A stretch of DNA of 61,412 bases, counting the filler, from Hausera hauseri (Eukaryota): the NCBI GenBank assembly GCA_046269625.1. It is 11 parts of 11 records of this genome, joined end to end, with 100 filler letters (N's around TTAATTAATTAA, not from the genome) between each part and the next. Parts side by side here need not be neighbours in the genome. Positions count along the whole stretch, not along the records: positions 6,476 to 12,277 come from JBJURY010186526.1; 10 more parts are not named here. One strand, given 5' to 3'. A model generated the notes under the pieces. It did not search any database and was not told the origin of the DNA. It saw only the letters and a program-made list of their open reading frames with translations. The position numbers were made by a program, and so were the translations under genes. This document shows, piece by piece, positions 1 through 46,561 of this stretch (position 1 is the stretch's first letter; each line of letters opens with the position of its first letter).

Positions 1-725
1 GAAGAACCTTTGAATGATAGAGTCGATTGACGACTCAGTGAGCTTAAGAACGGCATTATAAAGTTGAGCATATGGATAGGTGTGGTGAAGGATGTCGATT
101 ATGTTTGTAATTTTGGTTTTTATAGAAGCAAGTAAATTTAAAAAGTCTGTTGGTTTTGGATGAGGGGTCGACGACGTTTTGTAATTGGAGCTAGAATTGA
201 TGCAGTTTTAGCCATGTTTGGGTAGAATTTTGGCTGTCGAGGAAGTATTCTGTGCAGGGTGAATGAGGAGGGAGTGTGTACTCTGTCGGAGTGTTTGCGA
301 CACTTTGATTGGGTAGGTAAATGATGCAGATCGGTTGTTTGGTGGATTTGTTTGTGGTATCAATATTGGGTAATGAATCCATGCCACCACGGATGCGGAA
401 GTGTATGTGATGGCAGATATAAGATAAAGAAGATTGCAGGGTTCCATCGAGAGGTACCGTGGAGCCGTGGTGTGAGGTAAAAGTCAGGTTAGCAAAGAAA
501 AGTGGAGATGATGTTGTATATGGTATGTGTTTAAGTGTGTTAGTGCATTTGTGCGATGTTTATTATTTAAAAAATAAGAACAGAAAATACAGAGAGATCG
601 TGTAGTTGAGGGCGTGTCGTGGGGCGGCCGCGAATGGTGCCGTCCGACCCAATGGTATGGGGTGGGCGGCACAGGCTTCAGACTCGCCGCGGCGGGTCGC
701 AAATTTCGGGGTAGCCGCGGTCTCC
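1..725 (-). mobile_element. Ty3/Gypsy family-2 element: 3' part of the 5' LTR plus start of gag (decayed)
   Basis: The minus-strand translation (CTEYFLDSQ..TWLKLHQF, HHTYPYAQLYNAVLKLTESSIDSIIQRFF) aligns by eye with the gag N-terminus in contig H (45119-45520). GC-rich 610-725 resembles 45720-45830. The LTR appears to end in CAACATCA at 509, the inverted complement of the LTR start TGATGTTG at 46610. Confidence 0.75.
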
Positions 726-1005
726 GCACGTAAAGTCTCCTCATCGGTCAGTCCATGTTCACTACGCAACAAATCAATTTTACGGATCAATGACAAATTG
801 TTCGCGTCATCCATTGGCGATGGGTCGACCTCAGAGATTACGGCAGTTTCAGGTTCATTACTCCATGAAATAATTTTCTCTGCCAATAATTTAAGTCGTT
901 TCTGGAGTTTATGAGTAGCATCGGTACCGAGTATTTGAAAATATTTGTCATCACTTTTTAATACGTTGGTTTTTATTTTGACCCTTCGAGTTTCAAGTGT
1001 ATGAT

Positions 1006-3250
1006 TTAAAAGACAGAGTACGGTGAAACAACGCCGTCTGCCAAGTCCTGGCGAAAGCCAACCAAATAATTGCGCAACATCGGGTGAGGATGTAACATAA
1101 GAGTGAGCAGAATATTTGACAAAATAAAATTAATGCGAATTTGATTTTGTTTCATACGTCCAAATTTCCCAAAGAACGTTTCAGGGAAATGACCAACAAC
1201 AGCATGTCTAGTTAGTTCCGGATTGCTGTAATAAGTGACAACCATTTTCAAAGCCATATCCGAATTCTTTGGTGAAACATTGTCATCAATTGTTATAATA
1301 CTCTGTAATGACGTGATTGATGTTGTTGGCTGTGGAGGCCGCAATGGATGTGACTCATCTTCCTTTTTTACTTGATTACTGTCAGCAATAATTCTCAGAA
1401 CTTCTTCAAGTGAAGAGGAACAAGATCGAAGAATTCGTGAGTTTACCTGGATGGATTCAAGAGACAATGTAAAGTCTTCGAGTTTTTCGGATTTTGCTAT
1501 TTTATCTAAGTCATCCATAATAATGCCAGAATCGGATGATGATAATGAATCGGGCACAGGGTTGGACTGAACCTTTTTCACAAGTTTGTCGTTCAATGTA
1601 ACACTCGTTTCAGTTGAGGCATCGTCATTTCCGGAGAAATCAAGCATATTATAACTGATCGTATATAGAGACTTCTGTTCCTGAATATTTTCAATGCTCG
1701 GGTACCGGAGTTTGTGAATCAACGATCCAACTGGGAATCCGATTCAAATTTCATAGGTGTTAATGTACTGGCATTGATACTTCGAGATAGTTGTGAGCGC
1801 GGTGTAAAGTTAGAAGAATCCCCTGAATCAAATGATGAACTGCCTACAGTTCTTACAAATCTTGGAGTACTGACTGAGTTGGAATTTCGTCGACGAATAT
1901 CTTGTTTCAGGTAACTGCGAGTATTGATCGAGAAAACCATGAGATGGTTTTTTAGTTTGCATTACGATTGTGTCTAGTGTCTTTTCCATATAGTCAAGTG
2001 ATGGATTAATTCCATTATAGTCAAATTGCGACGTACTTTCACATACTCGGTGACATTTTCAATGGCCATTCGAGTGAAATCGAGAAGTTCTGTGTCGTAT
2101 GTTTCAGCAACAGGAAAGAAATTGGGTCGCAATCGAAGAAAAAGAGAAGATACTTCAAACATAGAATCACGACTAACAACAGAGTTTCTGTACTTTTTAG
2201 ATAAATGTCGACAAGGAATAAGATAACGAAATATCTGTTCAAAAATAACATTTTCACAATTTAATGATAACATAGTTTGAAAGAGTGACAGGGTGGAGAC
2301 ACCCAACCCACTTTTTGAATTCGATGTATTTATTAGCGACTGGAGTATTCGCTGACCTTCATGATTTTCACCAATTATAAAGCATGGAAACGGCTTTAAT
2401 ATTTCCGCTTCAGTAATTGATCGGAGAAATAATCCAAAGTATATGGTATGCGAAATTACTTCGTCCAGAGTTTTTCGATTCAAAGAAGGTCCAGTGACAG
2501 GTATTAAAAAGCAATTATAAATATAATGTGTAACGGCTTTACGTATTAGAGAATGAGACACTTGATTAACTTGGCGACAAAGACGCAGATAGTCAAGAAA
2601 GTGCTGCAATTGTGGACATGTTTTAATGAATGTGCTATTCAGTTGGTCGAGCAACACTACATGACAGAAATCTGGCAGTTTTTTCGGAAGATTGGAATTG
2701 AGCGCACTGAGAAACGTTGGCAGTACCGGACAGAAATCGGACTGAAGTGCGGTGCTGTATGCAATGTCTTCATTTGTAACAGTTAACGTTAATAGGAGTA
2801 AAACGGTATCTCTGGTCTCTTTACCCAAATGACTGTCTCTGTGAAGAAGCGGGATAGGAGGGTTAAGAAGCGGAAAAGGATCTCGGAAAATTGATAAACT
2901 GATTTCACTGCAAGGATTTTGCAATAGAGGTTCATTACTGACTCGCACGCACATCAGCTTCAGCAAATGAACGAGGGCGATTTCCAAGTGACGGCTTGGC
3001 CTAATGTTGTATTCATTAAGAAGACGGAGTAATTGTTCAAGAAACGCTCTGTCGAAACGCACTCGGGCGATAGTAGCCAATAATTGCTGCAAACAGACGT
3101 AAATGTTGACGTTTCAGTCGTTCCAATCATCCCCAAAATGGTGGAAACTCGAACCGTAAATATTGTTGAACAAATCTTCTTGAATTGAATACGTAAATAT
3201 TGCAGAAATATTATTCTCAGATGTCGATGAATTTTCCTCAGTTGGTCTCA
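1006..3250 (-). pseudogene. FHIP1: FHF complex subunit FHIP1/FAM160A-like (RAI16-like family), apparently intronless, with frameshifts and stops
   Basis: ORF 1974-3092 contains SDFCPVL, YIYNCFLIPVTGPSL and LSLFQTMLSLNCENVIFEQIFRYLIPCRH. ORF 1006-1722 ends MKQNQIRINFILSNILLTLMLHPHPMLRNYL. Both match remembered FAM160A conserved blocks. The coding sequence is broken across three frames. Confidence 0.85.
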
Positions 3251-6475: not shown

Positions 6476-7406
6476 TGGAGGTATTTTGAGTTCTATTCTC
6501 GTAGCCTCGTTCTTTAGTATTATCATACAATCTCTTATTATTTCGGTTCCTATTACGATTGTCACCATCATTATTCCGTTCAAATCTATCGCTCTGTTTT
6601 GCATATCTATCTAATTCCATTTCTAAATTTTGCGCTAACTGTAATGCAGTCTCAAAATTGTCTGATCGGGCTAAGATTAATTGCTTAACTAAATCTCTGG
6701 ACCATATTTTGTTTATTAACTGCGTCATCATCATGATGCCTAAATCTGGTGGGCTAGACTTTTCTGCAGCTTCAATTCTGCATCTGTCTTTACTTTAGCC
6801 GCGTTAGCTATCCTTAATGTATTTACATAACTATTAGCAAGTTTCTTTAATGCAAATGCGAAATGAGTAACCGATTTACCCTTTTGTTGGGTTGTATTCT
6901 GAAAAGCCATAAGCTTCTGTTGTGGCGTAACTCTCGGCAATAGCTTTTGGTTTAGGGCTCCTACTACAGAGGACCATGATTTCTTTTCATCGTTTGTAAG
7001 TTCACTATAGGCATGTGCAGCCAGATTATATCAAGTATAGAGACAATCGCTTAATCATAACTTCGGGCGCAAGGCCGGCACTTTCTGCATGCAATTTGTA
7101 AGTCCTCAGAAAATCATTTAACCCATCCGAGTCTCCGTCGTATGAGGGTAAATTTAACGAGTCGAGCGTGAATATATCAAGTATATGAGCTACTGCTGAG
7201 TTTTCTGTTGCCATTCTTATTCTATTTTGTCTGTCTATTTTAATTCTAGGAGGAGCTTTAAATTCTTTAACAGAGGTTAATTCAGTATCAGATAAACAGT
7301 GCTTATCGATTATCTTATCCTCGATGTAAAGCTTATTTCGAGTTTCTCTTTGATTACGTTCTTCTATGCCGTTCACTAATAAGTTTTGATATGAGTCAAC
7401 TATCAA
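6476..7406 (-). pseudogene. gag: Ty3/Gypsy family-1 gag (capsid-like domain followed by an Arg/Asn-rich tail)
   Basis: LPSYDGDSDGLNDFLRTYKLHAE..KRLSLYL..QQKGKSVTHFAFALKKLA is a retrotransposon-gag motif set. It lies directly downstream of the LTR and PBS and is homologous to 47757-48650. Confidence 0.85.
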
Positions 7407-7550
7407 TATTTGCTCTCAATTCAATTTTTAGTTAATTTCCCTCTAACCACTTATAATCCCACGTTTAAACTTTTAACTTATATCGTATAACAATTCGCCT
7501 GTATGTCTTTACTTGGCTCTCAAGAGTAATGTATAGCGATGCACAATCTG

Positions 7551-7567
7551 TTCTGCTAGGGTCGCCA
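7551..7567 (-). promoter_or_regulatory. Primer-binding site TGGCGACCCTAGCAGAA (possibly complementary to a tRNA-Arg)
   Basis: A TGG-initiated motif immediately after the LTR and upstream of gag. The tRNA identity is tentative. Confidence 0.7.
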
Positions 7568-7569
7568 AA

Positions 7570-8276
7570 TATTTTACAGTTGGGTGGTCCTTACCGTCTC
7601 CCACTATAACAATAGTTTATTTCAAGTTAAATTGCTTTTCAGCAGGTTAGGATTACCCGTTATTGAGTAATCTGCTTGTGCCTTAATAAATTTAGATAAT
7701 TTATGCTGTACTGCTGGTACTTCGTGCGGTTTAAATGCTTGTATTAGTTTATAAAATTTCAACTTAACTATGTGATTTTAAGTATAATTTACCCTTATGG
7801 TAGTCAAATCGTCCTTAAGAGATGATGAAAAACTATATAGGGATTTTAATAAACAATTTTAAAATAACCTTTATTCGATACACAGATTATCACAATAATT
7901 TCTCTAAACAAGAACAGTTCAAAATGATAGCGTAAGTAACAAGTCTTTGTCTTGGAATTTAGTTGTCCGACTTTAAGTCGTACACTGATTTCTGAATTCT
8001 AGTGGTTGGCGTACTGCTTATATATATTAGTAGCTTCAGTTCTATTTACATGTTTATAATACTATTCAAACAATTAAATTGAATTTTTCTATGTTTTAAT
8101 GTGTTTTCACTCATTTCTTCCATTACCAAATAGTTAGTACATATTTTGGTAATCCGACAATTCCATTATTAATATTTACAATCTAAATTCTTCGGAAATC
8201 TAATATTTACAATTACTACTTAAGTAAACAATTCGAGTCTTCGATTTCTTGATTGTTTACAATCCATTATGTTACA
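7570..8276 (-). repeat. Family-1 LTR (~700 bp)
   Basis: Begins TGTAAC at 8276 right after a polypurine tract and ends just before the PBS. Contains a TATA-like TATATATAA (~8018-8026) and a downstream AATAAA (7870-7875) on the minus strand. The end near 7570 lacks the canonical CA. Confidence 0.75.
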
Positions 8277-8288
8277 TCTCTCCTCCCT
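8277..8288 (-). promoter_or_regulatory. Polypurine tract AGGGAGGAGAGA
   Basis: Purine run abutting the TG start of the LTR. Confidence 0.8.
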
Positions 8289-8508
8289 GAGCGGTATCCT
8301 CGGAGGAGCCTATTGCGTCAGAAGAGGTGGCGCTTGACGTTCTCGGTCATCTTAACTGATTCATTCTTTCTGGTAGATATGAGGGTAAATTTCTTCGATC
8401 TCCATTGGTTATGGGGTTTATTTCCAAATTGTAGCTGTGATAAGGCTTGATCCGAACAATTCATGTGTAACTTCCATCACAGTAATATTTTAGTTCGGTG
8501 GCCTCTGC

Positions 8509-8643
8509 TCAAAATACTGGACATGTTGCTTTTCCATTGTCGAGTGTCCATTTTTCCATGCAATCTCGGCAGTATTTATGGCGGCAATTGTGGTTATCTA
8601 ATACCACATATCCTTGCCTCAAATTTGCGTCGCACACAGGGCA
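8509..8643 (-). pseudogene. C3HC4 RING finger at the 3' end of the family-1 accessory region (not in the ORF track)
   Basis: Manual translation gives CPVCDANLRQGYVVLDNHNCRHKYCRDCMEKWTLDNGKATCPVF*A. Seven of eight Zn ligands are intact, and TTT-TGA is one substitution per codon from TGT-CGA (CPVCRA). Confidence 0.85.
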
Positions 8644-10710
8644 TTCGCTATCTTTTTTGTTCCAATCATCTCTGTCTAAGTCGAGGTTTTATAACGGTTA
8701 AGTATAATTCAGTCCCATCTCTTTCTCGAATAGATACCTCGATCGGTATTCCATATCCATCGTCTCCTCTACCGTAGTTCGTGGCCAGAATCCTTATATT
8801 GCGACCGTCTTGAACTAACCTATACGATTGTAGATGTTCATCCTTTTCTGCCTCTGTTGGGGTTTTTTCGAACTGTAGAACTGGCAAGTCTAATTTGCAT
8901 TTCTTTTTATAAGTCATTTCAAACATCAGTTTAACCGGTAAGGCTGCTACTCGAAATTCTAATCCATAATCAATAGCTTCTAAGCCTCGTCCGCTTATTC
9001 TAAACGTGCTAAATTGGTATTGATGCCCTTCGTTACAATCCCATTGCTTGTTCTTTATTTTGTAGTAAACTTCTCCGTCGACCAGATGAATAAATATATC
9101 TTCCACTTGGGCAGTTCTATTCTGTATTAGTTCCTTAAGATTATACGATTTGGCTTGATTGTTACCGCGCATCGCGTATATCAGAATTGTGCGACTCCTT
9201 TAGGTGGTCCCTTTTAAGTCGTTGGGTATTTCATTTACTTTTCGATATTCGACATATGCTTCTGTCCGTAGTGCGTCATTTATTCTTAGGTATATGGCTT
9301 TAGATTTGAGTATAAAAACTGTTCCATATGTTTGTAAGAAGTCGCCGATTCTAGGTCGGCTGCTCGCACTTACCATTCTGAAAGAAAATGCAAAATAAGG
9401 GTCAATCCTAAAACAAAGTATTGTTCGAAATTTGAATCCATTCTTTGTTTGATAGTGGAATAACCCTATCTATAGTTTTTTCTATTTTAGCGGTAGTCGT
9501 AGTCTCATCCTTTATTTTCTCATAAATGAGTGGTTTCGTTACGACAATCTCGTTTAAGGTTCCTATTGTGAATACTCTACCTTGTTTATTCTCTGCACCC
9601 ATTTGTATTATATAGTCTGTTTTAGGTTTCAATCTGATACATTTGATTCGGTAGTTGCCTTTTGACAGTGACACCTTTTGATTATCGTGTATTGTTTGGC
9701 AGCTTATTTCTACATTGTAGTTAAGTGTTTCCTCCACAATGAACGTTATTTCGCGCTGTTGTGCCCAATATTTTATAGGGATTATTTCTAGATTCTGCTA
9801 AGACGATTTATTCGTTTGAATGATTCTGATGAGTGCAGTAGTAGTAGATTTTGTTTTTGTATTCGTCGTCGTTTCAAGTGAATTCGGCTTGATTGAATTT
9901 CTAAATCGGTACCTTCCTAGATAAATACTCGACTGGTTTGGTTTGACATCATATAAGTCTAACTGAATTCTATATTTATATTTTTGGGGTAACTTGCAAC
10001 ATCTTTTCGGTTGCTCGACGTCGATTTGACAGTACTGTTGGTTATGAGCTGGTATGTTCTCCTTCAGGAATCAGACTGAGATCACTCGACCGTTAATCAA
10101 TCGTACTTCTGTGTTTATTTGAACACAATTGTCCTTTGGATTTTCTGTTATACTTTCGATATTTTCTTCCAGCATCCGCTTTACTGAATCAAAGGACTGG
10201 AGTATTTCGTTGCGTTTTATCCCATGATGCTTGTTCCAAGCAGGGATAACTAATTGAAATTGTGGTTCTATTTCGTAGATTCTAGATGATTTCCGTGAAT
10301 ACATTCGGTAGGTAATGTTATAAGTATGTCCAAAATCCGCAGTGCAACATTGCGTATGCTTTCAGGCTCGAAATCACAATTTATTGTTTTTTTTGTCATT
10401 ATATCATCTAGGGCAATTTGAAGTCTTTCACCATTGTGGTGTGGTCTCTGTACTTTAAATCCAACGCATGTGGAGTTTGGCAAATAATAATGAATTTTGA
10501 CTGATTGTAACAACGTAATTCCTTCTTGCCTTGGGATTTCTTCTAATGTTGGTATCCTTTCCGTTTTATTAACCTCTGGTTTAAATCCATTTTTCTGCGC
10601 TCCGTATACATTTTTAATGTAGATCCGTCGTGCCACCATTTAGTTTGTTCTCTCGGAATACAAGAAGCAATTATCGATAATGCTAAAACTATCTGCACAT
10701 ACGATATGGG
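8644..10710 (-). pseudogene. Family-1 post-integrase accessory protein: signal-peptide-like segment, Cys-containing beta-rich/FN3-like domains, Thr-rich linkers
   Basis: Hydrophobic YVQIVLALSIIASC (10640-10701) follows the integrase. FN3-type motif CIRLKPKTDYIIQMGAENKQG at 9579-9641. TTTNTKTKSTTT and ETTTT linkers. Homologous segments occur in contigs C and J. Confidence 0.7.
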
Positions 10711-12277
10711 TCTGGTGATAATCGACGAGGTCTTGTTTTCTCGCGGTCTTAGATTGTAATGTTTAGCTGGCCTTATAACGGTTTTAACTACTCTTTGAAT
10801 CAATACCACTTCCTCTTTTCCATTTTTATTGATATAAACCGTGATTGGTGTTGTACGGATGATTTCATATGGTCCTCTTCCAGTAGGTGTTAATTTCAAG
10901 GATGTACCTTTCTTCGCGACTGGGTAATGTAGGCAAACCCCATTTCCCTTTTCCAGATCATGAGGCTTAGTCTTTTTATCGTATTGTTTTTTAAATTGTT
11001 CCTGGTATTCGAGTGATAATGTTTTCGCAACCTCCCAACACTTTTGTAATCTTGTCTGTAAAACTTCGGCAAAGTTTTGCTCTAAATCCTTGAGATTTTT
11101 TTCATACGGCGTCATGCCTAGATCGGCAGGTAAGATTGCCTCTCGTCCATACATCATAAAGAACGGTGTGAACCCTGTTGCTGGATGTGGAGTCGTACTA
11201 ATCGCGAATTGTGTTCCATCTGGGAATTCATCCCAATCCTTTTGATTTTTTGCCACTACTGTTGATAGTATCCGAATAACTGTTGCGTTCATTCGCTCAA
11301 CCATTCCATCACATTGGGGATGGCACGCGGTAGTGGTTAGACGTTCAATTTCAAATATTATGATAATCTTTTTTAATAGTTCGCTTGTGAAGTTCTTTCC
11401 TCTATCAGTTAGAATTTGTTCTGGTGGTCCATATCTGCAGATGATTTTTCTTACCACTACGTCGGCTAAAGTTTCTGCCTTTTGGTGCCACTAGTTCTAC
11501 GAAGTGCGTTAGTCGGTCCACACATGTCAGGATATACCTGTTATTTTATGAGTTTTAGGCAAGAGTCATACTATATCCATAGATATGGCTGACATGGGCT
11601 TATCTGGTACATTTATGGGTTTTAATTCTGCTACGTAGCCTTTCGTCTTCTTTTGTTTTGTCGCGCAAACTTTGCACGCTCCTACCCAATTCTTTACATC
11701 AATATAAATACTTGTCCAGTAGTATTTATTCAATATTCTTTCCAATGTCTTCTTCCAGGATATATGTCCGGCTATATATGAATCATGTTCGGCCATGAGT
11801 ACTTCGGTGCGCAACTCTTTTGGAATAACTATTAATCTTCGTCTCTTCCGTTCGTAATACAGGATATTATCCTGGTTTTCGGCGTGATATTTATGTCCGT
11901 GTTTTTGCAGGTGCTTCTTCAGTTGCCGTCCCTTGGGTATATCGCCGTTTTGTGCCAACTTAACAATTTGATGATTAACTTTATCTTGGGCTTGCTCGGC
12001 CGTAATTCTAATTGTCTTATCTATTATTAGAGTTTGTTGTCGTTCGATTAGTTGTTCGAGTTGCGGCTTTTTTGCTATAGTAATTGTACTCGATTTTGTC
12101 TTAAGCCTTGATAGTGCGTCAGCGTCGACGTGTTTATTTCACGGTTTGTATTGGAATTCAATGTTATATCGTGAGATCTATTCAATCCAACGGTTTAATC
12201 TACATGTCGGATTATTAGCTCGTCCTTTCAATGTCGTAACTGCCTTGTGGTCGGTTACTATAATAATCCTTTGTCCA
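10711..12277 (-). pseudogene. pol: Family-1 pol, 3' part (end of RNase H, HHCC zinc finger, DDE integrase, GPY motif)
   Basis: EHDSYIAGH..CKVC, SMDIV, ILTDRGKNFTS, HPQCDGMVERMN, GRGPYEI. Confidence 0.95.
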
Positions 12278-12377
12278 NNNNNNNNNNNNNNNNNNNNNNN
12301 NNNNNNNNNNNNNNNNNNNNNTTAATTAATTAANNNNNNNNNNNNNNNNNNNNNNNNNNNNNNNNNNNNNNNNNNNN
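12278..12377. other. Artificial contig spacer
   Basis: N44-TTAATTAATTAA-N44. Confidence 0.98.
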
Positions 12378-13590
12378 GAGTTGTAATTTCGTCACCTGTG
12401 TTTTCATATATGCGTGACTCCGCGCGGATTTCGTCTAATGTGCGCAATGTAACTGTTTCATTTTGTTTATTTTCCACATATACGTGTATTATGTAATCGG
12501 ATTGTGGTTTTAACGAATTACATTCTGTCTGTTGAGTGTTTTTAAATAACGTTACCTTTTTACTGTATGTTGTTCGGCAGCTTATGTGTATGTCATAATT
12601 TAATTTTTCTTGCGCGAAGAACACAATTTTGAATGTGTGCCAAAAATTTAATGGGTATGTTTTCTAATTCTCTTTTAGACGCACTTTCCGAAATAACAGG
12701 TATGACAGTATTACTAACTCGGGTAGTCGGCTTTTCGGTTGTCGCCTCTACTGTAATTTGCCATATTTTATTTGGGTAATATGTTTGCAAATGTTTGCTC
12801 GGTTTATTTGGTCTTACTTCGTATAAGTCGAACTTTATTTTGAATCCTTGATTTACTGGTAGCTTGCAACATGGGTGCTGTACACTGGCGTGAATAGAGC
12901 AGTAATTTTTCCTCGGGTTTCGCCCGTTTACCGCTTCGAAGACAATACTAATTTCTAGACTGTCGTTCAACCCTGATCGAGCATCTACTTGGATACATTG
13001 TTTTTCTCTATTTACCGAAATTTGCTTTATATTTTCGTCCAGTAACTTTACCACTGGATTGGTGGATTGTGGGATTTCTATGGGCTCTTTTCCGAAACGT
13101 CCAGGCCAAGGGGGAATGACCAACTGAAGTTTTGGGTTTACTTCTAGATAGTATTCTGACGAATCAGTTAAGTATAATCGATAAGTGAGAATGTAAACAT
13201 GTTCGTACTCTACGTCGCAACACTGGGTATAATTTCCGGGTTCAAAACCACAGTTTTTCATCACTTTTGTTGTCACGTCATACAGAACAATCTGAAATTT
13301 TCCAAAATCGTGGTGTGGTTTCCAAGTTTTAAACCCTACGCACGTGGAGTCTATCGAAAAGTAATTAAGCGTTATTGACTGTAATAATTTAGTGTCTTCT
13401 TGCTTTTGTATCTCCTCGGTTGTTGGCCTCCTTTTCGCTATATTGTTCTTCTCCTTTAATCCGTTTTTTCTTATTCCGTATACGTCTCATAACGTAGATT
13501 CATCGTCCCACCATTGAGTTCGTATTCTTGTAATATAAGAAGCAAACAAAGATAGTGCTAAAATAATTTGGACATATGAGATCGGCCTAG
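12378..13590 (-). pseudogene. Family-1 post-integrase accessory protein, second copy
   Basis: YVQIILALSLFASY..QWWDDESTL follows the integrase; Cys-rich domains; FN3-type motif CNSLKPQSDYIIHVYVENKQN at 12460-12522. Confidence 0.7.
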
Positions 13591-16500
13591 CTATTTTTGA
13601 GGAAGATTTTACCTGTCGTTGACGTAAATTGTAACGTTTATTGGGTCGTATATCTGTCTTGACGACTCTCTGTACTGACACGATTTCTTCTTTTCCATTT
13701 TTATTAATGTACACCGTCGTTGGTGTGATTTTAGTAATTTCATACGGTCCTCGGCCACTTCGGGTCAATTTCAACGAGGTCCCTTTTCCGGCTGCTGGAT
13801 AATGTACATAAACCCAATTTCCTTCCTTTAAATCATGTGACTTTGCCCTTTTGTCGTATTGTTTTTTAAATTGCTCTTGGTATTCTTGCTATAATTATTC
13901 GGCAATTTTCCAACATTTTCGTAATCGCGCCTGCATCACTTCTGCAAAATTCTGTTCTAGATCTTGTATATGGTGTCATTCCTAGGTCTGTAGGCAACAC
14001 AGCTTCATGCCCATAGATCATAAATAATGGTGTAAATCCCTTTGCTAGGTACGGTGTGGTATTCATGACAAATTGAGTCCCTTCTACAAATTCGTCCCAA
14101 TCCTTTTGGTCCTTAGCCACTACTGTGGATAGTGTACGTATGACGGTTTCGTTCATTCGTTCAACCATCCCATTACATTGACGATGATACGCAGTAGTAT
14201 TTAGTTGTTCAATTTCAAATATTTTGGTGATCTTCTCAAATAGTTCACTCGTAAAATTTCTTCCACGGTCGGTTAATATTTGATATGGGGTCCAATATCT
14301 GCAGATGATTTTTCTTACTACAGACTCTGCCAAGGTTTCTGCCTTTTGGTCAATTAACGCTATCAACTTGATAAAATGAGTTAGTCGGTCAATTCAAGTC
14401 AAGATATATTTATTATTTTTGAGAGTCGTAGGTAACGGTGCTACAATGTCCATTGACATGGCTTGCATAGGCCTGTCTGGTACGGCGATTGGTTTTAGTT
14501 CTGCAATGTAGTTCTTTGTCCTTTTTTGTTTTGTTCCACATATTTCACAAGCATTTACCCAACGTTTCACATCAATATAGATACTGGGCCAGAAATATTT
14601 ATTCAAATTTCTTTTTAACGTCTTTTTCCATGACATATGTCCTGCTAAGTATGAATTATGTTCCGTCATAAAGACTTCGGTCCTTAAACTTTTAGGAGTA
14701 ACTAATAATTTTCTCCCTTTTCGCTCATAGTACAAAACGTCTTAACTGCTCTTATTCAAGATACAGTATTTGTATCCATGTCTGTGTAAGTGCTTCTTTA
14801 GTTGTCGTCCTCTTGGCATAATATCTTTTTTAGCAAATTCTATAATCTGCTGGATAACTTTATCTTTCCTTTGTTCTACCGTAATTTTGATGGCTTTATC
14901 TGTTGTCAATGTACGTTGGCGGTCTATTAATTCTTCGAGTTGAGTCCTCTTCATTATGGTGATTGCACTCGTCTTAGTTCTTAACCTAGATAGCGCGTCG
15001 TCATCTACATGCTTATTTTCCGGTTTATAGCGAAATTCAATATTGTATCTAGAGATTTCTTCGATCCATCGATTAAACCTGCATGTCAGATTATTTGTCC
15101 GTCCTTTTAGAGTCGTGACGGCTTTTAGATCAGTGACAATTATAATTTTGTGCCCGTACACGTAAACGCTGAAGTGTCGCAGGGTTTCTTTTTCGGCTAG
15201 AGTTTCTAATTCGGTAACGGAATAATTTTTCTCGACCTTTCTCAGAGAGCGCCCTCCGTAAGCAATTGGATGTTCTAATTCTTCGTCTTCTCTCTTCTGT
15301 GCTAATTCATATCCAATGCTTTCCTTGCCGGCATCCGTCTTGATTATAAAGGGTAAATTGAAGTCCGGGTATAGTAGGACTGGTTCACTTGTTAGTATCT
15401 TCTTCATTTCGTCGAAAGCTTTCTGTTCGACATCTGTCCACCTCCATCTAATTCTTTTTTAGAGTAGACGATATAAGGGTGCATTTATTTTCGAGTTGTC
15501 TGGCACATAAGTGGCATAATATCCACAGAGACCTAACCAATGTCTAAACTCTTTCTGATTTTGGAGCTCCATGCAATCTGATATTTCGTTCAATATTGAC
15601 TTATCTGGTTTTGATCCTCCTTCCCCAACTATATGACCAAGGCAGGACACTGCATTTTGGGCCTATTTACACTTTTTTGGATTTAATTTCAATCCGGCTT
15701 GTTCGAGTCGCCTCAGTGTATGCTCGATGTCCTTTAGATTTTCTTCCTCTGTTCTTCATGCTATCATCACGTCGTCTAAATACGCAAAGGCATGATCTAG
15801 TCCCATCAACATTTTGTTTATCATTCTAGTAAAGATAGCTGGTCCAGTGGTAATGCCAAACGTTATTACATTAAACTCGTAGACACCATCGTGTGTTTTG
15901 AATGCAGTTTTTTTATATCGGTCTTCGTCCTCAATTTCTACTTGCCAATATCCGGATTGTAAATACAGCGTGGTAAACCATTTTGCCCCTGAGAGCCTGT
16001 CTAGAGCTTTTTTTACCGATGGCAATGGAAAAGAATCCTTCATGATGAGATTGTTTAACGCCATGTAGTCAATGCAGAATCAATGTTTTGTAGTACCCTT
16101 CTTTTTGACCATAAGGATCGGTGAGTACCAAGATCTATAACTGGGTTTAATTATGTCGGCCTTAATTATTTGCTCGACTTCCTTTGTTATCTCGGGCCTT
16201 AGAGAATGCGGTGGAGGATACCACTTCGGCATTTTTTGGTCTTCCAGATCTATCGCTTCATTTGAACCAGGCTTTTTGTTAAGCGGAATAGTTAATTTTT
16301 ATGCCTTTGCCCTGCCGATATTTTCTTCATCCTTAGCAATAAGTGACTTATAACGGTATAATAATTCATAGAATCTACAATAAGATTCGGGGGAAAACCT
16401 AGTTTCAACATGCGGTGGAAATTCAGCATATTTGTAAGGTTTTTTTTCAATAGTTATGGTTGACACTCTATATGTATCTCCCAATGTTGTATAAGCATGG

Positions 16501-17100
16501 AGCTTCACGGGGGTCGGCTCGCTATTGGCTATTCTAATTGGTACTCGACCAGAGCGCACCCTGGTCAGTATGTTACTCAGCGTTATATTTGGATCTAATG
16601 TCTCCTTTGGTTTGAAGTATATCGGTTGATCCTTATCCTGTTGGACTTCAGCATAAATTATTATTGCAGCTCTTAGTGGAATATTTTCGTCCACTGGTAT
16701 TCATACTTCTCCGAACTTCCTATCTTTGGCGTTTTTACGCCCTTATTTGGTCTGATTTCTATTCATTTTCCTGTCTGTAAGTCAATTGGTAGTCTTTTTA
16801 GTAGAACACATCCTAGAACTACGTCGTTTGTCAATTGTTCCATAACTGCGAATTTATGGTGGAAAAATTGTCCACCTATTTATACTTCTGGGTTCCATTT
16901 AAATATTGGTTTTGACACCTGACAGAAGGTTCCTGTGCTTCCGGAATCTTTTACTGACGGTGAATAGAACTGTCTTCTTAGCCTTACAGGGATTGAATTA
17001 TTTTTAACGTACGACATTTCCAAACCTGTATCAATCAAGGCATATACTTCCCAATACTCAATAATAATTTTGGCGAAGGGCCTACCTTCTATACTGTTCC
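13591..17100 (-). pseudogene. pol: Family-1 pol: protease, RT, RNase H, integrase (frameshifted)
   Basis: ALIDTG (17024-17032), LQSGYWQV..TFGITTGPAIF..YLDD, FIIKTDA..YSVTELETLA, HHCC, LTDRG..MVERMN, GRGPYEI; Gypsy domain order. Confidence 0.95.
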
Positions 17101-17358
17101 GAAACAGTTTGATGCAATCTTCGGGTGTTTTGTTGCCGATATTTTGTGCCCATTAATTCGGATTTCTGGAGAGGGTACCGTGTTTTTTGCTATTTGGCTC
17201 AATTCTCCGTTTGGATATAGATCATTATTTTCAACGTTTTCTTCTTCCACCTCACAAGTGTTAATTAATGGTTCTCGATTGTTAGTATATGGTTCCATAT
17301 TCCGGAAGGTCTTAAATTTTGGATTGTCCCAGACAGGCGATTTTGTTTCTATACTTCA

Positions 17359-18476
17359 CTATTTTCTCGGAAAGTGCAATATTCTGGGGTCGTTGAGAGG
17401 CTGTCGATAACACATTTTCCTAAGGACTCCGTAACGTTTTGTTCCTTTATAAGGATCTCCTAAACTAATTGTCCTTTTATAGATTTCTGTCTGATATAAA
17501 CTCATTGATTGTTTGTCACAGTTTTCGTAGACTGGAGCGGTAGGGGGTAGCATAGGCAATGGTGCCTTAACGACAGAATACATCTTATGTCTGTTTGTTC
17601 CTGAAAGTACTTCTCCTCCCTTAGGCTCGTCATCCTCTGAATTATTTCTTCGCGTATTAGGTTTTGTAAATTTCCGCTTGTACAATAACATAGGCCTTCC
17701 TTTTCGTTTACGATTATAATAACCGACATGGCGTTCTACGTCCGAATTCCATATATTTTCTTCGTATGCTTTTAAGAACTTTCCAAAAGGTGTTATGATT
17801 GCAGTCAGTATTTTGCATGAAAATCCGGGCAATGTAAATATTTCATACCCATTAATTACTGCTTGGATGACTGCCTTAATCATTTGTATCAGAAAATATA
17901 TCGCTAAGAATCCGGATGCGGCTTGTCCAAAAATCAAAAATCTTCCCAAAATTTTGTAGAGTATTTTTGTAATTACTCGCTAGCAATGGTTTACTCCAAG
18001 CAAGGATTCCTATTTAGCTTGATATCGAGTATCGTGTACTACGGAGGCCATAACTCGGTTTAATTCGTGTGTTCGCTGTCGTAAAAAAGCGAGGTATTAT
18101 CTGAAGGCTTCGATTTCCTTAAGCCTATATATGCCTTTTGACGAGGTGTCTTGAAATTTGTCGTCTGTAATTCCTTTTGAAAGATTTGTTCCTGTTAATT
18201 TATTTGGAGCAGCAGTAATATTTCCATTTGGCAAACTGGCCCAATCTGTTTCACTACGTCTATCATGGGTTCTCCTAAGCTTGCTTTATAATCCTTAAGG
18301 ATTGTTTGTTCAGTTGCATTGTCTAATAGCACTCTAGTGAGTGGCATAGCTAACTTTGGAATATTCTGGTAAATCACGGGAAGTTCCTGCATGCAGCGTT
18401 TTTCTTCAACGTTGATTGGTGCATCTCTTTTCTCACATTCGTAAGTCAATAGTACTTCACCGGTAACTCGACCAAA
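17359..18476 (-). pseudogene. env: Chuvirus-like class III fusion glycoprotein (C-terminal half, TM region and basic cytoplasmic tail) upstream of the protease
   Basis: GRVTGEVLLTYEC..CMQELPVIYQNIPKLAMPLTRVLL, KGIYRLKEIEAFR.YLAF and GRFLIFGQAASGFLAIYFLIQMIKAVIQAVINGYEIFTLPGFSCKILTAI follow the motif series I recall for chuvirus glycoproteins (AGEVxHIIKC, CYxELPV, GIYxxEDL..HIMFP, FGxxSAG..IHGYALH.VYGWS). Confidence 0.8.
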
Positions 18477-18576
18477 NNNNNNNNNNNNNNNNNNNNNNNN
18501 NNNNNNNNNNNNNNNNNNNNTTAATTAATTAANNNNNNNNNNNNNNNNNNNNNNNNNNNNNNNNNNNNNNNNNNNN
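18477..18576. other. Artificial contig spacer
   Basis: N44-TTAATTAATTAA-N44. Confidence 0.98.
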
Positions 18577-18974
18577 TTTAAAAATATTAAAAAAAATTTT
18601 CTTATTGTTGTTTAAATAATCGAAAAAAGGCAGTTTTTACTTATCGTAGCAGACGGACATTTTTTAATGCTTTGACATTGTATGAAAATACATCGTTCAG
18701 TGCTTATATTTTGTCGAGAAATTTATGTTTGAAACTACGTCAAATTTATTTTTCAACGAAATACCCAGGTCCCGTGCAAGGATTGATATTGTTCTTCTGT
18801 CACATGTTAATGTTTTTGATTTAGTGACTAACATTTTCACTCCTAAAAGGAATCAGGTTACCCCAGTCGCGTCGAAACAAAATTTACTAAACCCAGATAA
18901 ATTCAAAAACGATAAATGGTTATATGATGAATGATAATACTACAAAAGCTTATTTGATGAGAAATGTTACGATG

Positions 18975-19064
18975 AATGATGATACGAAAAATAACGATCC
19001 GATAAATGACGATATGATAAATAACGATACAATAAATAAAGATGCGATAAATGTCGATACAATA
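18975..19064 (+). repeat. Degenerate 15-bp minisatellite (6 units, consensus AATRAYGATNNRATA)
   Basis: aatgatgatacgaaa / aataacgatccgata / aatgacgatatgata / aataacgatacaata / aataaagatgcgata / aatgtcgatacaata; encodes NxDxI-like pentapeptides. Confidence 0.75.
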
Positions 19065-20669
19065 AAAGCAAATATCCATACAAAAATATCAATAAATGGT
19101 GTCAGATGCCTCAGTATTCTCAGACAAATTCCTGCCCTACGTTCCGATTTTGTGGATACATAAAGCAAACGATGATCCAAGGATCCACTGTCGTCGGGTT
19201 GCGCATGCAGCGGCCAACACGCAGATCACAGGTTGGTGAGTTTGATTTTATGTTTAAACCCATTTTACGACTCCAATTTTTATAATGAAAGTAAACGCAT
19301 AAATAAAAACAAAAAACAAAATCAAACCGATCATGATGTCGAATTAAACAATTTAACGTATGTTATACCGCGAAATTTTTATGATATTATTGATACAAAT
19401 TTGAATTTACTCTATCCAAAATGTAGTAGTAATCACAAAATAACAATGAATATTAATTCCTTCCGTAATTCGTATATTTATGAATCCTATAGTAGTCTGC
19501 TTCAAATATCTAATGAAAACAGGGAAAATATTTTTCATGAGTGTGTAAATCAGAACGATGTAGATAACAATTACGAGGTACCACCCAATACAGCAACGAG
19601 AAGTGCCATCTCTACTGATCGCTTTGATAATGTCGTAAAACAGAATAATTTTCCCATAAAATCTGATCACCATTAAACTGGAAAACGCAATGACACAAAT
19701 TGTTATTTATTTGTAACCGTACCATCCGATATTTGTGTTGCTTCAAAAGACTTTAAAATAGATTTTACATTGGACAATAATGTAACAATTTCTGATAGTG
19801 AATTATTAGACAAATCGGAATTTTATGAAACGCATTCGGACCAATTTCTCATATTAAATCCAATATTATGTATGCCGATAAGAAACAACAATAAACAAAC
19901 GACTAATACTCCATATCAAATTGAAGAAGACCTGATCGATAAAACTATGCATAAAAAACTTCGTCAAAACTCTTCAAGGCAATTATTGGTTTATACAAAC
20001 ACCACTTTGAATCGCAATGTGGCAGTCATTTGTGATTGGGATATTCCATCCGATGCCCATTCTGCTACTCATACGATTATACCCGACGATCTCTATTACG
20101 ATTTTATATCAAACCATTCAATGACAACGAGCCATACCGTTGTCTCACTCTACGTATTGGGACTTTCCAACAAGAAACAGACACTTTCCGAAGATAAAAC
20201 CAGTTTGGTTGTCGATGACTGCTGTAACACGTTACCAAATTTTGTATTTCGAAAAACAACATCGTCACAAGCACCGACGCATTCACGACTAAATATTTGT
20301 TTTTCATTACCTATGCTGCTACAATCCGGAATGAAACGATCACAGGCTTTGGATGGAGTTTGTGATTTGTTGAAAAGTCGGATTTGGAATTCAAGAAAAT
20401 TCAACAAGACACCTTTAAGATTATGGATAATGACGATGTCTATTCGGATGCAGTGGATTCGTTTGAAGCAGAAAGCCATTTAAGAATTGGCGGTAGTTGT
20501 AACGATATTCCTTTTATTGATGATGATGCATGTTATACCGATTCTTTCTATGGTTAATCGAATTATAAGGTGTGGTTACTTAAACATCCACAACTCTCTA
20601 AATTTATTGATATACGGAGCACCAGAACAGTCTGCGATGAACACTGGTCATCAGAGATCGGTTTTGGAG

Positions 20670-21695
20670 CTGCCCCATCGGATATGCGGCCCGAATATCA
20701 TCTGGTCAGAAACCTGGACGCGTCCGTAAACCGTGCACCACAACACGTCTGTGGCATCACTCTTCAGTCCCTTTCTTTTTTTTAAAATAACATATTTCTA
20801 CCATACAAACTAGTAACACGGACATTGATTACACCCTCTATATGTCTCTATTCTTTTTCCTACACACTTGCGACTTTTATTTGTCGCAACATGGTTCTGT
20901 GCTACACCCGTCTGACTCATTTTCTTCCTTCGCTTCTCCGATCATTTATCTCACCCTTCACTTTCACATCCGGGGTGGTTCGGACACTGATCCTTCTGCT
21001 GAAAATTCCTCCAAAACAAGATCTGGTCGTCGCCCTGCTGACTCTGCACAATCTGCTTCTCCTAATCTTCCTTGCACAGAATTCTTCCTCGATAAAACTA
21101 ATTTAAGCCGCATTTGGCTACAGTTTCATTTACAATAGCTTAAAGCCAATCATATTACCGATTTTTTCTTGCGCGCCAACAGCTTGTTAATTCTTCTCCC
21201 AGAAAATATCAAGCATCAAATCAATAATCTTGCTGATATCCTTACTTCTCCAACACCATATGACATGCTTTATGAGTCTGTTTTTTATATTACCAATCCA
21301 TCGATTGATAATATAATACAGATGTACTTTAACGAACATGCTATAGGCAATCAAAAGCCTTCTGACTTTCTGCAGACCTCTATTTCACACCTAAATGCTC
21401 TTGGCGTTACCCCCACCAAAAATGAAAATTTGATTCGTTGTTATTTTTTCTTCTCCTTGCTCACTTCCATTAGAGCTCTACTTAATGTCGTTGACGACTC
21501 GACGGCGATTGAAAAACGTACTCTATTGGCTTATAAAAGTTTCGAAATTTTACAAACTAACAACTTACAACCCGTATCTGCAGCAACCACACATACTCCA
21601 TCGCACGTAGACACGACTGTTTTCGCACAGCAGCTACAATTAATTCAGAAACAATACGATACTCTACAACATTAAATTTCTGCCATCACGGCCCG
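20670..21695 (+). mobile_element. gag: Gypsy family-2 fragment: LTR end/leader plus gag
   Basis: WLQFHLQ..LLPENIK..PYDMLY..IGNQKPSDFLQTSISHL..IRALLNVV is homologous to the contig H gag (44715-45320). Confidence 0.8.
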
Positions 21696-22449
21696 ATGTT
21701 TGATTTAGAATATTATTTTTCAGCTGACGGTAAAATAACTCCATTAACGCAAATAACCAATTTAATTTTTTTATTTCAAAATTTTAAAAACACTATTGAT
21801 TTTCATTGAATTCGCAAATAACCATATAAACGTATAATAAATATCAGTGGGAATCATTAATAAAACAAACCATATAAAATTAATAAGTAAAGTCAAAAAC
21901 GGCCATCAAAATATTTTTTATCGTTTACCCATGTGCAAAATTGACAAATCCCAATTAGATGATTCACGCGGACTTTCTTTGCATACTAAGATTTTCTCTT
22001 ATACCTATTTGTTAAACGTTTTCTAATAAGGTCTTGCATAGTCAATCATTACATTATTTTCAATTTTAGATTCTTTGACATTATCTTCCATAACACATAA
22101 TCAGATTTTACGGCAATACGATTTATTTGCCGGAATCAACATTTTTGCCATGCCGACTTCATTGACGACGGCATCCGTCGGGGGATTTAACGATGTCTGG
22201 ATGGATTCCATTTTATACTTATTGTCAAAAATCATTTTCTTCAGAGTCGACACTTGCCCTTTTAGTTTGAAGTTCTCATTGATTAAATCATCGACTTTGT
22301 TGGGTGATGCAACTGAATTATTTTGAGTAACATCACCGTACTCGTTAGCCTTTTTATTGACGTTCAGTGCCATTTCATATTCCCTATCATCAAAGAGTCA
22401 TTGATTTTCGCTCTTCAGTTAAGACAATTGGTGTTATTTGATAATCTGG

Positions 22450-23610
22450 CTTCATTTGAACAGGAACACTGAGCAATTTTGTACACAATGTCTGGCGAGA
22501 CTGTATCTCCTGAGTCCAGCGAACTTGACTGATTGAATTATTCTATGTTCTGATAATTGCATTATCGTCTCTTGCGATTGATCTGGACATATCGAAAACA
22601 TTTGACTGGTTGCAGCTGGATTGTGGCGGCACCACAATACCCCCCGTTACAAAGGTGATACTGTATTAATAAAAAGAAAGAACAGAAGACAAAGAGAAGA
22701 CAAAACAGAAATGTAGGTGAACTAATGAAACGTGGAAAGAATAGTTATAAGTTATTGCGTTTTTGTATGGACAAGGCGTTGAATCTTATCGATATTTTGT
22801 TCTCTGCTGTATTTGCTGAAGGTAACTGTCTTGTGTCTTTTGCCGTGTTGCTTAATTGTTTGCTGAGTTAGTTGGGAAGAAGTTAAATTTTGATTTGAAG
22901 TCTCAACAGCTTGGGAACTAATCGGTGTGTCCTTTGGCGTAGTTTTTTTTGTATTGATACAGGTTTTGAAATAACAGATTGTCGTGTAGGCAGAATGGAA
23001 GAAGAATTGAAGGAATCAAGAAAGGTATGTGCAGAGTTAGTTGTTGGATCCGGTGTGTCATTAACGAAAAATGCAGATTTTACGTTAGATATGTGCACAT
23101 TCTGTTCTTTGTCGTTTTTTTGTATCGTAACTGTGTGAAGTGACATTGAGGACTTTAAATGGTCCTAAATAATTTGGTTGAAATCCTGTAGGTAAAGGAT
23201 TTTTATCCACACGAACTTTGCGTTAAATAGCGAGTCAGGTAAGTATATTTTGTCTCCATGTACTATTTTACAGAAAGAATCCTGGCTTAGCTGAACGAAG
23301 TGATGTTGTGCAGATCTGATTGTTTCGTCAGTTGGTGTGTTGTCCAAATCGGTGAGTTCGAAAAGTGCGCGAATTGTAGTACCAAAGAGTGCTTTAGCAG
23401 GTGCGCAATCGGTGGTGGTAGACGGCGTGTTGCGCTACCCTAGTAAAACAAAAGGAAGGATGTTTGTTCAATTCTTATGAGATTCAGCCAGGATTTTTAG
23501 CGAAATCTTGAGAGTGCGATGAAAGCGTTCTAGTAAGCCGTTCGACTGGGGATGATATGGAGTTGTGTGTATGTGATTTATGCCCAGTCGATTAACTAGA
23601 GATTTGAATA
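22450..23610 (-). mobile_element. Gypsy family-2-related 3' end: integrase C-terminus, PPT and start of the 3' LTR
   Basis: TTPYHPQSNGLLERFHRTLK, RNTPS, YLGPFKV, NVHISNVK. A GGGGGG tract (22640-22645) is followed by TGTGGTGCCG. Confidence 0.8.
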
Positions 23611-23710
23611 NNNNNNNNNNNNNNNNNNNNNNNNNNNNNNNNNNNNNNNNNNNNTTAATTAATTAANNNNNNNNNNNNNNNNNNNNNNNNNNNNNNNNNN
23701 NNNNNNNNNN
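23611..23710. other. Artificial contig spacer
   Basis: N44-TTAATTAATTAA-N44. Confidence 0.98.
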
Positions 23711-39182: not shown

Positions 39183-40479
39183 ATGCAGTATGTTAGCAAT
39201 ACAAATGCAATACCACGTAATACATAATCACAGATTCATACATGTGTGTTTTACCTTGCTTTTTGTTTAAATTAATCAGTTGTCAAAATATAAGTTCATG
39301 CAATTGATGCATTAAAACAAAAATGCATTGTTAGAAATACTGTGGTTGTATGTATTTGATAGTGCACCATGAACCAGACCTGTAAAAATTTAGAGACTAC
39401 AGAGAACGTAAAATTCATCACTTCATTTTGTTGGTGCATGGAAACAGCTTTCAGTACATTCCAATGCACCAACAATGCATTTTTGAAATTTGATAGTTCG
39501 CCATGTGTGAAGTACTTCGCCAGTAAAAATATGCCCATTCGCATTAACATTTGTACAATTTTCCAAAAAAACAAAAGTTGTTTTTGGTTAAAATTTATTT
39601 CTAAACTTTGAATAAAAAACTTTTTATTCAACTGAGTTATCGTGTACTTAAAACAATTAATACATTATTTTATTAAATATCACGTCCAGGTCTTGTACAT
39701 ACCCCCCCGCGACTGCTTTACGTCATTATCAGTTGACCACATTCACAAACAGCTTGAATAATCAATAAAGAAAAATTAGTTTTCCTTAACATTAAACTAC
39801 CATCAGAGGACAATTTCGACAACATTATTACAACTGTTATAATTCGTCTATTTATTATATCATGGGCAAATTATTTGGTAAGCAAGTGGAGTAAACAAGA
39901 AAATAAACGGTAAATCCGAATTGAATAAATAGGGTTCAGTAATTGCCTGGGATTCACAATTTCTAAAAATTATCTTAATCGTGCTCCACAAAGAAAGATC
40001 ACAAGTTTTTGAACTTTTATCAGTTGAAAATAAATGTGTCTCTGCTGAAGTCAATTAAAACGTAGTATCATTTGAGCCAAGAAAAATAATCAATCAATAG
40101 AATATAAAATTGTATCGCCTTCACAGCACACAGTACAAATATACCAATCAAAAACATTGCTGCCATTTATTTGACCGATACTATTAAATGCACGGAAAAC
40201 GGCTTTTGGTATTTTTGAACGTTTAAAGGTTATAACATTTTCAATGAGCGTAAAGTTATCTGATAACAACTCAGCATTTTGTAGTAATTTTTCTTTAACT
40301 TACATCGTCGAGTTAGGTAACAATAAATTTGTTGCCAGAGGCTTGTTTCGGTAATCTAATCGACAATTCGAGAAAGGTTTGCGCTTCATCGTAAATAACT
40401 TTGCGCACTTTTGTTGGATTAGACTGAATATCATCGTCTGGCATTCTTTTATTGAATTATTTCAGTTTTTAAGGCAGGA

Positions 40480-45830: not shown

Positions 45831-45969
45831 AATGCAGGGTGCCCGAGTTTCCCCTCGAAGCGCGCAATATCGGGATGTTATCTGGTATAGATATTTGGGA
45901 TATTTGATGAAAGATTGGAATTCTGTCAGAAATTTGATAAAAATGCGAATAATTTGTAGTTGGTTTCAT

Positions 45970-46495: not shown

Positions 46496-46561
46496 TTATC
46501 CGTTTCGCTACTAGAACAGTACCAGTTTTGAACAGTACCCGTCAGCTTATGAACAAGACAT

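Follow-up and report, generated by a model that had tools for sequence, protein, structure and literature searches.

The window analysed here is a 61,412-nucleotide stretch (filler included) of the genome of Hausera hauseri (assembly GCA_046269625.1), in which eleven eukaryotic contigs are joined by N spacers. Three of these contigs, designated B (6476-12277), C (12378-18476) and J (51382-57097), share mutual nucleotide identities of 70-77% and are decayed minus-strand copies of one Ty3/gypsy family, in which the frame of the polyprotein gene pol runs on past the integrase into a signal-peptide-like segment and a series of units with a predicted fibronectin type III (FN3)-like fold. All three copies are broken, and all the features described for them lie on the minus strand. 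The family is abundant: 11,529 contigs from run X1 and 1,104 from run X2 could be placed on B, and in each run all 30 bins of B were reached, with the qualification that X1 possibly derives from the same source as the window and its counts are not independent.

The order protease, reverse transcriptase (RT), RNase H and integrase was found in C and J by Pfam and tblastn, which places the family in Ty3/gypsy (Metaviridae). For comparison we used three intact relatives that are described in full below, the proteins P0003 and P0004 and the metagenomic locus L002. Contig B begins inside pol, and its decayed 10744-12277 region encodes the end of RNase H, the integrase and an in-frame GRGPY module (Pfam rve E 5.6e-4 on 10543-11490; tblastn to P0003 residues 921-1408). 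C, J and L002 begin further upstream, inside the envelope gene (env) or earlier cargo. The decayed pol of C, comprising protease, spacer, RT, RNase H and integrase, occupies 13625-17150 as judged from tblastn to P0003 and from translations; in J, env fragments (57097 to ~56000), a spacer and pol together span 51776-57097, with Pfam matches to RVT_1, RT_RNaseH, Integrase_H2C2 and rve. The upstream fusogen mentioned in the initial annotation of this DNA proved to be of the gB type. In C, 17362-18476 encodes the C-terminal part of this env, a transmembrane helix at ~17910 recognised by hydropathy and a cytoplasmic spacer, matching the env of L002 and the Pfam family Monjiviricetes_fusion (PF24664, E 9.2e-13 and 8.4e-5), and the same family is matched weakly in J. 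The stretch from env through the spacer to the protease is broken in both C and J, although open frames cross parts of it. Within this stretch, third codon positions of the env tail and spacer are 0.72 identical between C 17359-17979 and J 55490-56200, a much closer relationship than that of the pol segments and one hinting at recombination between subfamilies.

In all three copies a hydrophobic segment follows the GPY module of the integrase (B 10719-10642, C ~13594-13514, J ~51751-51680), where the initial annotation had placed it, with Kyte-Doolittle peaks over 19 residues of 1.76, 1.50 and 1.56, respectively. An open frame across this junction had been reported for J; it is open there, but it is equally open from integrase to segment in B and C, with a frame change in B and a stop in C shortly afterwards. 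The segment of B, which lies in the open frame 11490-10543, is 59% identical to the N-terminus of P0004. An xQA cleavage-like site is present in J, as had been noted, and also in P0004 and P0003, and is absent from B and C. By hydropathy and pattern, a hydrophobic core with small residues at the predicted cut was seen in J, P0004, P0003 and L002. No conserved Met was found before the segment in B, C and J, and no splice acceptor feeding it is conserved (the Gln codon is CAG in B and J and CAA in C), so that read-through from pol is the simplest route by which the segment would be expressed.

The segment is followed by a charged linker and then by three related units of ~80-95 residues. The Cys-paired beta units and Thr linkers of the earlier description are therefore present, but as three related units and not as one FN3 module plus unrelated ones. 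Profiles of units 1 and 2 match each other at up to 27 bits, and unit 3 is matched more weakly, at up to 8 bits. In B, alignment places the charged helical linker and unit 1 at 10240-10603, with frame changes near 10610 and 10355; the matching regions of the P0004 model are a helix (42-73) and seven strands (76-161). Unit 2 lies at 9897-10163 (one in-frame stop; the unit 1 profile matches unit 2 rows at 15-27 bits), a Thr-rich linker at 9783-9896 (one in-frame stop; its P0004 counterpart is 37% Thr+Ser), and unit 3, which carries the LxPxTxYxI motif and is recovered by a profile of L002 and P0003 units described below, at 9552-9782. A short Thr stalk at 9408-9551 then leads to the frame end (open frame 9797-9411). 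No transmembrane helix follows unit 3 in B, and no 19-residue window reaches 1.4 in any frame of 8300-10800 except at the signal segment; the absent helix may represent a loss in B or a secreted variant. In C, the signal segment and units 1 (13387-13112), 2 (13033-12752) and 3 (12639-12433) fall within 12378-13624, where the contig end cuts the copy, and the ectodomain includes a 297-codon open frame (13486-12596) with 34% identity to P0004 (E 3e-36). J retains the signal segment with xQA, the linker and the first half of unit 1 (51382-51775; open frame 52045-51383; 41% identity to P0004) before its contig ends.

The initial annotation had assigned an FN3 signature, LxPxTxYxIxxxAxNxxG, to both B and C. 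Across all six frames, the window has the full motif at one place, B 9641-9579, and the C site (12522-12460) has the core LxPxSxYxI only; the core was found twice in the window, at these two sites, whereas 100 shuffles gave 0.21 on average and at most 2. Additionally, one X1 contig (depth 135.6) links the end of the integrase to unit 3 with 1,054 letters between them, compared to 1,049 in B, indicating that this spacing is kept in another subfamily.

Between B and C, 341 ectodomain codons gave pS 0.67, pN 0.35 and dN/dS 0.28, with a bootstrap upper bound of 0.41 and a lower bound rendered uninformative by saturation; the purifying selection between copies that the initial annotation had named as a test of its proposal was thus detected. 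The pol segments gave 0.05-0.11 where dS was finite. Within the accessory region, dN/dS was 0.04 for the signal segment (36 codons, B against J; range 0.04-0.10 within the window family) and 0.24-0.32 for the units. In alignments made from nucleotides only, third codon positions were the least conserved in all four accessory comparisons (0.51 vs 0.61 and 0.65; for unit 3, 0.52 vs 0.63 and 0.72). Together, the dN/dS values and the third-position pattern imply that the accessory region was translated and constrained while the lineages were active. The region was under purifying selection and diverged about three times faster than pol, with identities of 41% for the ectodomain and 74-84% for pol in the window, and of 25-29% and 80-85%, respectively, between L002 and P0003. 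Host-contact proteins tend to diverge fast, and an ectodomain that changes much faster than pol fits a protein of this kind.

When 1.84 billion representatives were searched in full with HMMER, P0004 was the single match (479 residues, 34% identity, E 3e-36). This protein combines a signal segment with three units and two Thr-rich linkers, carries four N-glycosylation sequons and has a transmembrane helix before its short tail. A word-indexed protein search gave no match to the open reading frame (ORF) of C among longer proteins (0 of 982 candidates), and with the alignment as query it gave P0004 alone (1 of 4,424 candidates). P0003 came from a search with pol; here too the frame passes from the integrase into a signal-like segment, which precedes two units, a transmembrane helix and a tail. 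L002 was among 48 loci from a metagenome scan; it is a single frame of 3,426 residues, open at the 5' end, that encodes a gB env (PF24664 E 4.7e-94) together with RT, RNase H, integrase and three protease-like stretches and, past the integrase without a break in frame, a signal-peptide-like segment, two units and a tail preceded by a transmembrane helix. No locus was recovered from viral contigs, or in the first metagenome scan, with accessory, GPY, RT, P0003 and P0004 queries, and one further scan gave one unrelated locus.

The frame is open through the whole post-integrase protein in L002 and P0003, and a C-terminal transmembrane helix with basic stop-transfer residues is present in all three intact relatives. 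The second extracellular protein that had been proposed for the post-integrase slot is therefore supported by these relatives, which encode a probable type I membrane protein as part of the fusogen's polyprotein. The tails of L002 and P0003 end in T-x-V, which we take to be of the class I PDZ type, and that of P0004 carries YxxPhi, presumably a sorting motif. Hydrophobic segments of L002 at 1032, 1585, 1753, 3019 and 3329 alternate as the topology needs, which is consistent with threading of the polyprotein through the membrane; of two further hydrophobic segments, that at 3160 is a strand of a unit and that at 1461 lies inside a protease. A second cassette, made up of a signal, one FN3-like unit, a Thr stalk and a transmembrane helix, lies downstream of env and upstream of the last of the three protease-like stretches in L002 (4750-5350) and P0003 (residues 44-232), so that the polyprotein of this lineage would give three membrane proteins. 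In the unit-profile comparison the N-terminal unit of P0003 scored no better than shuffles, and no hydrophobic segment was found in the spacer between env and the last protease in the window family.

BLASTP of P0004 against P0003 gave no significant match (best E 0.75), and the kinship of the two therefore rests on profiles. A unit 3 profile of the window copies and P0004 found L002 at E 5e-6 in the six frames of 49 loci. A profile built from L002 and P0003 units only found unit 3 of C (E 1e-8), P0004 (2e-8) and B (1e-6), and the next of the 313 chunks scored 4 bits. Among eleven loci with an integrase and at least 1.2 kb downstream, units were present in L002 only, the other 10 being without them. 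In an RT-RNase H tree of 28 rows, which left out 21 of 48 tblastn rows with fewer than 200 aligned residues, the window copies were sister to L002 and P0003 at 88/93. L002 and P0003 are 85% identical in RT and were therefore counted as one outside lineage, ~40% identical to the window RT.

AlphaFold2 was run on P0004 with nine window rows and gave a mean predicted local distance difference test (pLDDT) score of 66; the three seven-stranded units are mostly at 65-87, the Thr linkers are disordered (below 50 in the counterpart of the B linker) and a helix lies at 433-466. The FN3-like fold that the initial annotation had suggested for verification by AlphaFold and Foldseek is supported by this model, in which the units are predicted seven-stranded sandwiches with tandem FN3 proteins as best matches. 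With the P0004 model as query, Foldseek found 59 PDB chains whose E did not exceed 0.001, the best being fibronectin 10-12 (1.8e-6), and nearly all of the rows listed were tandem FN3 proteins (fibronectin, contactins, gp130, Tie2). Unit 1 aligned to an FN3 monobody with Z 7.9 and a root-mean-square deviation (rmsd) of 3.0 over 85 of 89 residues, and to the EPO receptor with Z 8.1 and rmsd 2.8 over 89 residues (range of rmsd for unit 1 as a single domain, 2.6-3.0); unit 2 aligned to an FN3 domain of a cytokine receptor with Z 7.4 and rmsd 3.6 over 93 residues. On the basis of these comparisons, the units are predicted to be FN3-like in fold; in sequence they lie below the Pfam family cut-off. 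Sequence searches of the PDB were empty, and a fold search of BFVD gave no close viral relative, phage tail proteins leading with TM-scores below 0.25; that search also gave weak matches to herpes gC (E 4e-4 to 1e-3). In a language-model comparison, single-pass FN3 proteins were among the neighbours of both P0004 and the P0003 cassette, at 0.85-0.87, values that serve as leads only. Single-sequence folding of the C ORF gave an unusable pLDDT of 34.

While the initial annotation had treated 8644-10710 as one protein, 8644-9376 belongs to a separate RING-bearing gene that it had not recognised. The FN3 frame of B ends at ~9411 inside a block of 130 bases (9346-9477) common to many subfamilies, and summed contig depth in X1 is 7,700-26,900 in bins 9322-9474 compared to 290-2,300 in bins 8761-9321 and 9475-9678. 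This block contains an acceptor-like AG ending at 9378, the best of 110 YAG sites in 8277-12277, followed by an ATG (9376) and by a donor-like GTAAGT (9373), the only GT[AG]AGT of the three copies. All three elements fall within ten bases (9378-9368) of a block conserved across subfamilies, an arrangement that could be a start-codon micro-exon or a trans-splice site.

From ATG 9376, the frame of B is collinear with ORF2 of L002 (43 of 202 positions identical, a score reached in 1 of 1000 shuffles). In L002, ORF2 is a separate frame of 496 residues after the polyprotein; it passes Pfam RNase_T (PF00929, a DEDD-type exonuclease), and its ATG lies directly behind a T-rich AG. The B counterpart (8669-9376, with one in-frame stop and a frame change near 8690) consists of an N-terminal domain, to which Pfam assigned no family, and a remnant like exonuclease motif I in which only ~45 residues resemble the domain start and the motif I acids are missing, short of a full DEDDh domain. 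After a frame change, this remnant is followed by a C3HC4 RING finger (8512-8646) that passes the PF00097 gathering score (E 1.2e-6, 28.7 bits vs a cut-off of 21) with its motif broken at the end, and diverged gap-free contigs cover the RING finger in both X1 and X2. Judging from the sequence, it is likely that the exonuclease or its remnant and the RING finger form a separate downstream gene made from spliced RNA. We had also considered the RING finger as the cytoplasmic tail of the FN3 protein, as in an RNF43-like membrane ligase, and rejected this, as B has no helix between the two, its frame stops at 9408 and the L002 homologue is a separate ORF. L002 has a third ORF (12229-12666), coiled-coil-like, for which no Pfam family passes; it ends in PPPY, which we take to be a motif of the late-domain type.

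Downstream of this gene, B has a polypurine tract of 12 purines (8288-8277) followed by TGT at 8276, the start of the 3' long terminal repeat (LTR) (feature span 8271-8288, from sequence and X1 depth). About 60 bases around the tract (8274-8333) are common to many copies, depth peaks at 8251-8352, and 49 X1 contigs continue past 8274 into unlike sequence (agreement 0.47). The LTR of B itself has low depth.

Parts of several published accounts allow these features to be set against known elements, and the comparisons that follow refer to those parts. Errantiviruses with a gB-type (HSV/gB) ENV and the order GAG-ENV-POL are described in Platyhelminthes, Nematoda and Bryozoa (Chary and Hayashi, eLife, PMC13524379); like the window family, they combine a Ty3/gypsy pol with a gB/chuvirus-like env upstream, and by eye the L002 env resembles two Schmidtea env rows of the supplement to that work. 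No second surface protein after the integrase is described in the sections of PMC13524379 covered here; its main text does not contain "fibronectin", "RING" or "accessory", and other ORF arrangements were not sought in it. No LTRs are listed there for eight Schmidtea and Prostheceraeus rows, and the 3' ends of those elements may hold the same cassette unreported. Burro and GYPSM1, giant gypsy-like elements of planarians (PMC6431247), have a layout that L002 shares: env precedes protease-RT-RNase H-integrase in the frame of one giant polyprotein, protease and RT are separated by a spacer, and accessory cargo is linked to ubiquitin. The Burro cargo, however, lies upstream of env (AIR1/RING, MATH, BIR, BCL2-like, ankyrin), and in the covered sections of PMC6431247 nothing follows the integrase and neither FN3 nor a second membrane protein appears. 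Pfam found no family of Burro-type cargo (BCL2-like, BIR, MATH, ankyrin) in the 470 residues of L002 before env and detected neither BCL2-like nor dUTPase families in L002; a BCL2-like motif seen there by eye was not confirmed. The env-before-pol layout is already known from flatworm errantiviruses and Burro.

The downstream gene of L002 and B is similar in kind to ORF3 of the bdelloid rotifer elements Juno and Vesta (PMC5408684), which follows pol, encodes either a DEDD-type exonuclease or a small transmembrane protein and is typically spliced; such ORFs are also covered in PMC7264820. The Juno and Vesta ORF3s are separate, however, and in the main text of PMC5408684, as far as covered, the transmembrane ones are not described as FN3 or as in frame with pol, and no RING fusion appears. 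Our search for FN3, RING, Ig-like or PDZ features in LTR elements met no relevant paper in the literature searched, and subscription journals, Repbase and the primary Burro and nematode papers could already show the domain; a post-integrase FN3 protein was not found in that literature. In herpesviruses, gC, gD and gE/gI are attachment and spread glycoproteins that accompany the class III fusogen gB. These provide a beta-sandwich type I glycoprotein alongside gB, as here, but they are separate genes of DNA viruses and have no sequence relationship to the FN3-like protein.

We see about an even chance that the post-integrase protein is an adhesion or attachment protein that acts beside the gB-type fusogen in cell-to-cell spread. 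In such a mechanism, the pol frame would continue past the integrase into the signal-peptide-like segment and the tandem FN3-like modules, and alternating signal and stop-transfer segments would thread the polyprotein so that the env and FN3 parts are luminal while protease, RT, integrase and the tail are cytosolic. Signal peptidase in the endoplasmic reticulum (ER) would release the FN3 part as a single-pass surface glycoprotein, made one to one with gB, and a hydrophobic stub would stay on the integrase unless trimmed by the protease of the element. The FN3 units, held on a Thr-rich stalk, might then bind a ligand on the host cell surface, and the tail might steer the protein to contacts between cells, the sites at which particle budding and fusion by gB would take place. 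A special case of this mechanism is direct coupling to gB, as in the two-component entry system of the initial annotation. This flatworm-type Ty3/gypsy clade would then make a multi-component envelope from one polyprotein, with a class III gB fusogen and one or two FN3 attachment proteins, released by signal peptidase, that choose the target cell or junction and trigger or position gB; we put this forward as speculative and regard it as unlikely.

Several observations weigh against the attachment proposal. The signal segments were assigned by hydropathy and pattern alone, with no good cleavage site in B or C, and no window copy shows a membrane anchor, as B has no transmembrane helix and C and J end before that point. 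The protein folded was the homologue P0004, with the window rows as an alignment about three deep per unit; Z scores of 7-8 are common by the tool's own account, and matches to unit 3 came only from multi-domain rows. Pfam fn3 (PF00041) gave E 0.024 and 15.3 bits, against a cut-off of 25, on unit 3 of C, and no match for the units of P0004, P0003 or L002. Furthermore, the 88/93 node falls below the starring threshold of the tree tool, the tails differ among relatives, being of the PDZ type in two and not in P0004, and fast divergence of the ectodomain also fits relaxed constraint. FN3 folds, moreover, serve cytokine decoys as well as adhesion.

This last point leads to the possibility, which we consider somewhat unlikely, that the protein is host-modulating cargo independent of entry, a receptor mimic or decoy for a soluble signal or surface receptor that, with the exonuclease/RING gene, damps defence, blocks superinfection or alters the host cell. 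Units 1 and 2 have extra cysteines and align as well to FN3 domains of cytokine receptors (EPO-R, IL-20R, gp130) as to adhesion proteins, although identity to solved receptors is at most 15%. The Atlas leads include the IL-11 receptor and cytomegalovirus (CMV) US8 (0.84-0.85, leads only), B would yield a secreted form, the adjoining gene is of a regulatory type, and apoptosis and ubiquitin functions are among the cargo of Burro elements (PMC6431247). However, the protein is fixed in a structural polyprotein, and L002 and P0003 keep two anchored cassettes, an arrangement that suits a component of the particle or the cell surface.

It is improbable, in our estimate, that the role is mainly topological, with the signal segment tethering integrase and pol to the membrane, the tail routing to the assembly site and the FN3 units serving as a stable luminal spacer that binds no particular ligand. 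Assembly in most Ty3/gypsy elements involves no such anchor (10 of 11 control loci), and lineages ~40% identical in RT retain one to three stalked units with a cysteine pattern. Conservation of the membrane-spanning parts bears on this idea in both directions: the signal segment is nearly as conserved as pol in the window family while the units drift (dN/dS of 0.04-0.10 and 0.24-0.32), and the part of the cassette that L002 and P0003 share most closely is its transmembrane helix (50%), but the signal segment is only 24% identical between these two. Finally, the broken state of all three window copies would suit a captured fragment of a host gene or a chance open frame without function. This is barely credible and already largely refuted, given the purifying selection, the intronless and in-frame occurrence at the same position across those same lineages, and the absence of a cellular homologue among the 1.84 billion representatives, where P0004 was the single match.

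Cell entry by retroviruses and errantiviruses is generally attributed to a single env gene. A fast-evolving yet conserved, predicted FN3 surface protein co-translated with gB is a concrete candidate for the missing attachment or cell-to-cell spread factor of gB-type errantiviruses, elements for most of which the transmission route is unknown (PMC13524379). A pol polyprotein that re-enters the ER after the integrase would be an unusual expression strategy for an LTR element, and a multi-component envelope of gB and FN3 proteins, as in herpesviruses, would, if true, be something that no retroelement is known to have in the literature searched. Derepression of Burro has been shown in planarians (PMC8532177), and RNA interference in planarians together with derepression of such elements makes the attachment idea testable.

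Elsewhere in the window, an FHIP/RAI16-like gene is represented at 191-3113 by a broken copy that appears to be poor in introns (PF10257 E 1e-35, DUF5917 E 1.6e-8). Within 40355-46671, an unrelated gypsy element, with a gag-like stretch at 45233-44715 and pol at 44214-41516, adjoins a protein-kinase fragment (46671-45697, Pkinase E 1.9e-23), and by eye 21139-21675 resembles a gag related to this gag-like stretch. A 564-codon open frame at 58658-60352 matched no Pfam or NCBIfam family. An inverted repeat of 545 bases with 75% identity (6601-7144 and 47767-48303) is common to B and a further contig, I, and gave no Pfam match on the frames tried, and a DDE_1 transposase fragment is present at 27226-27594 (E 2e-7).

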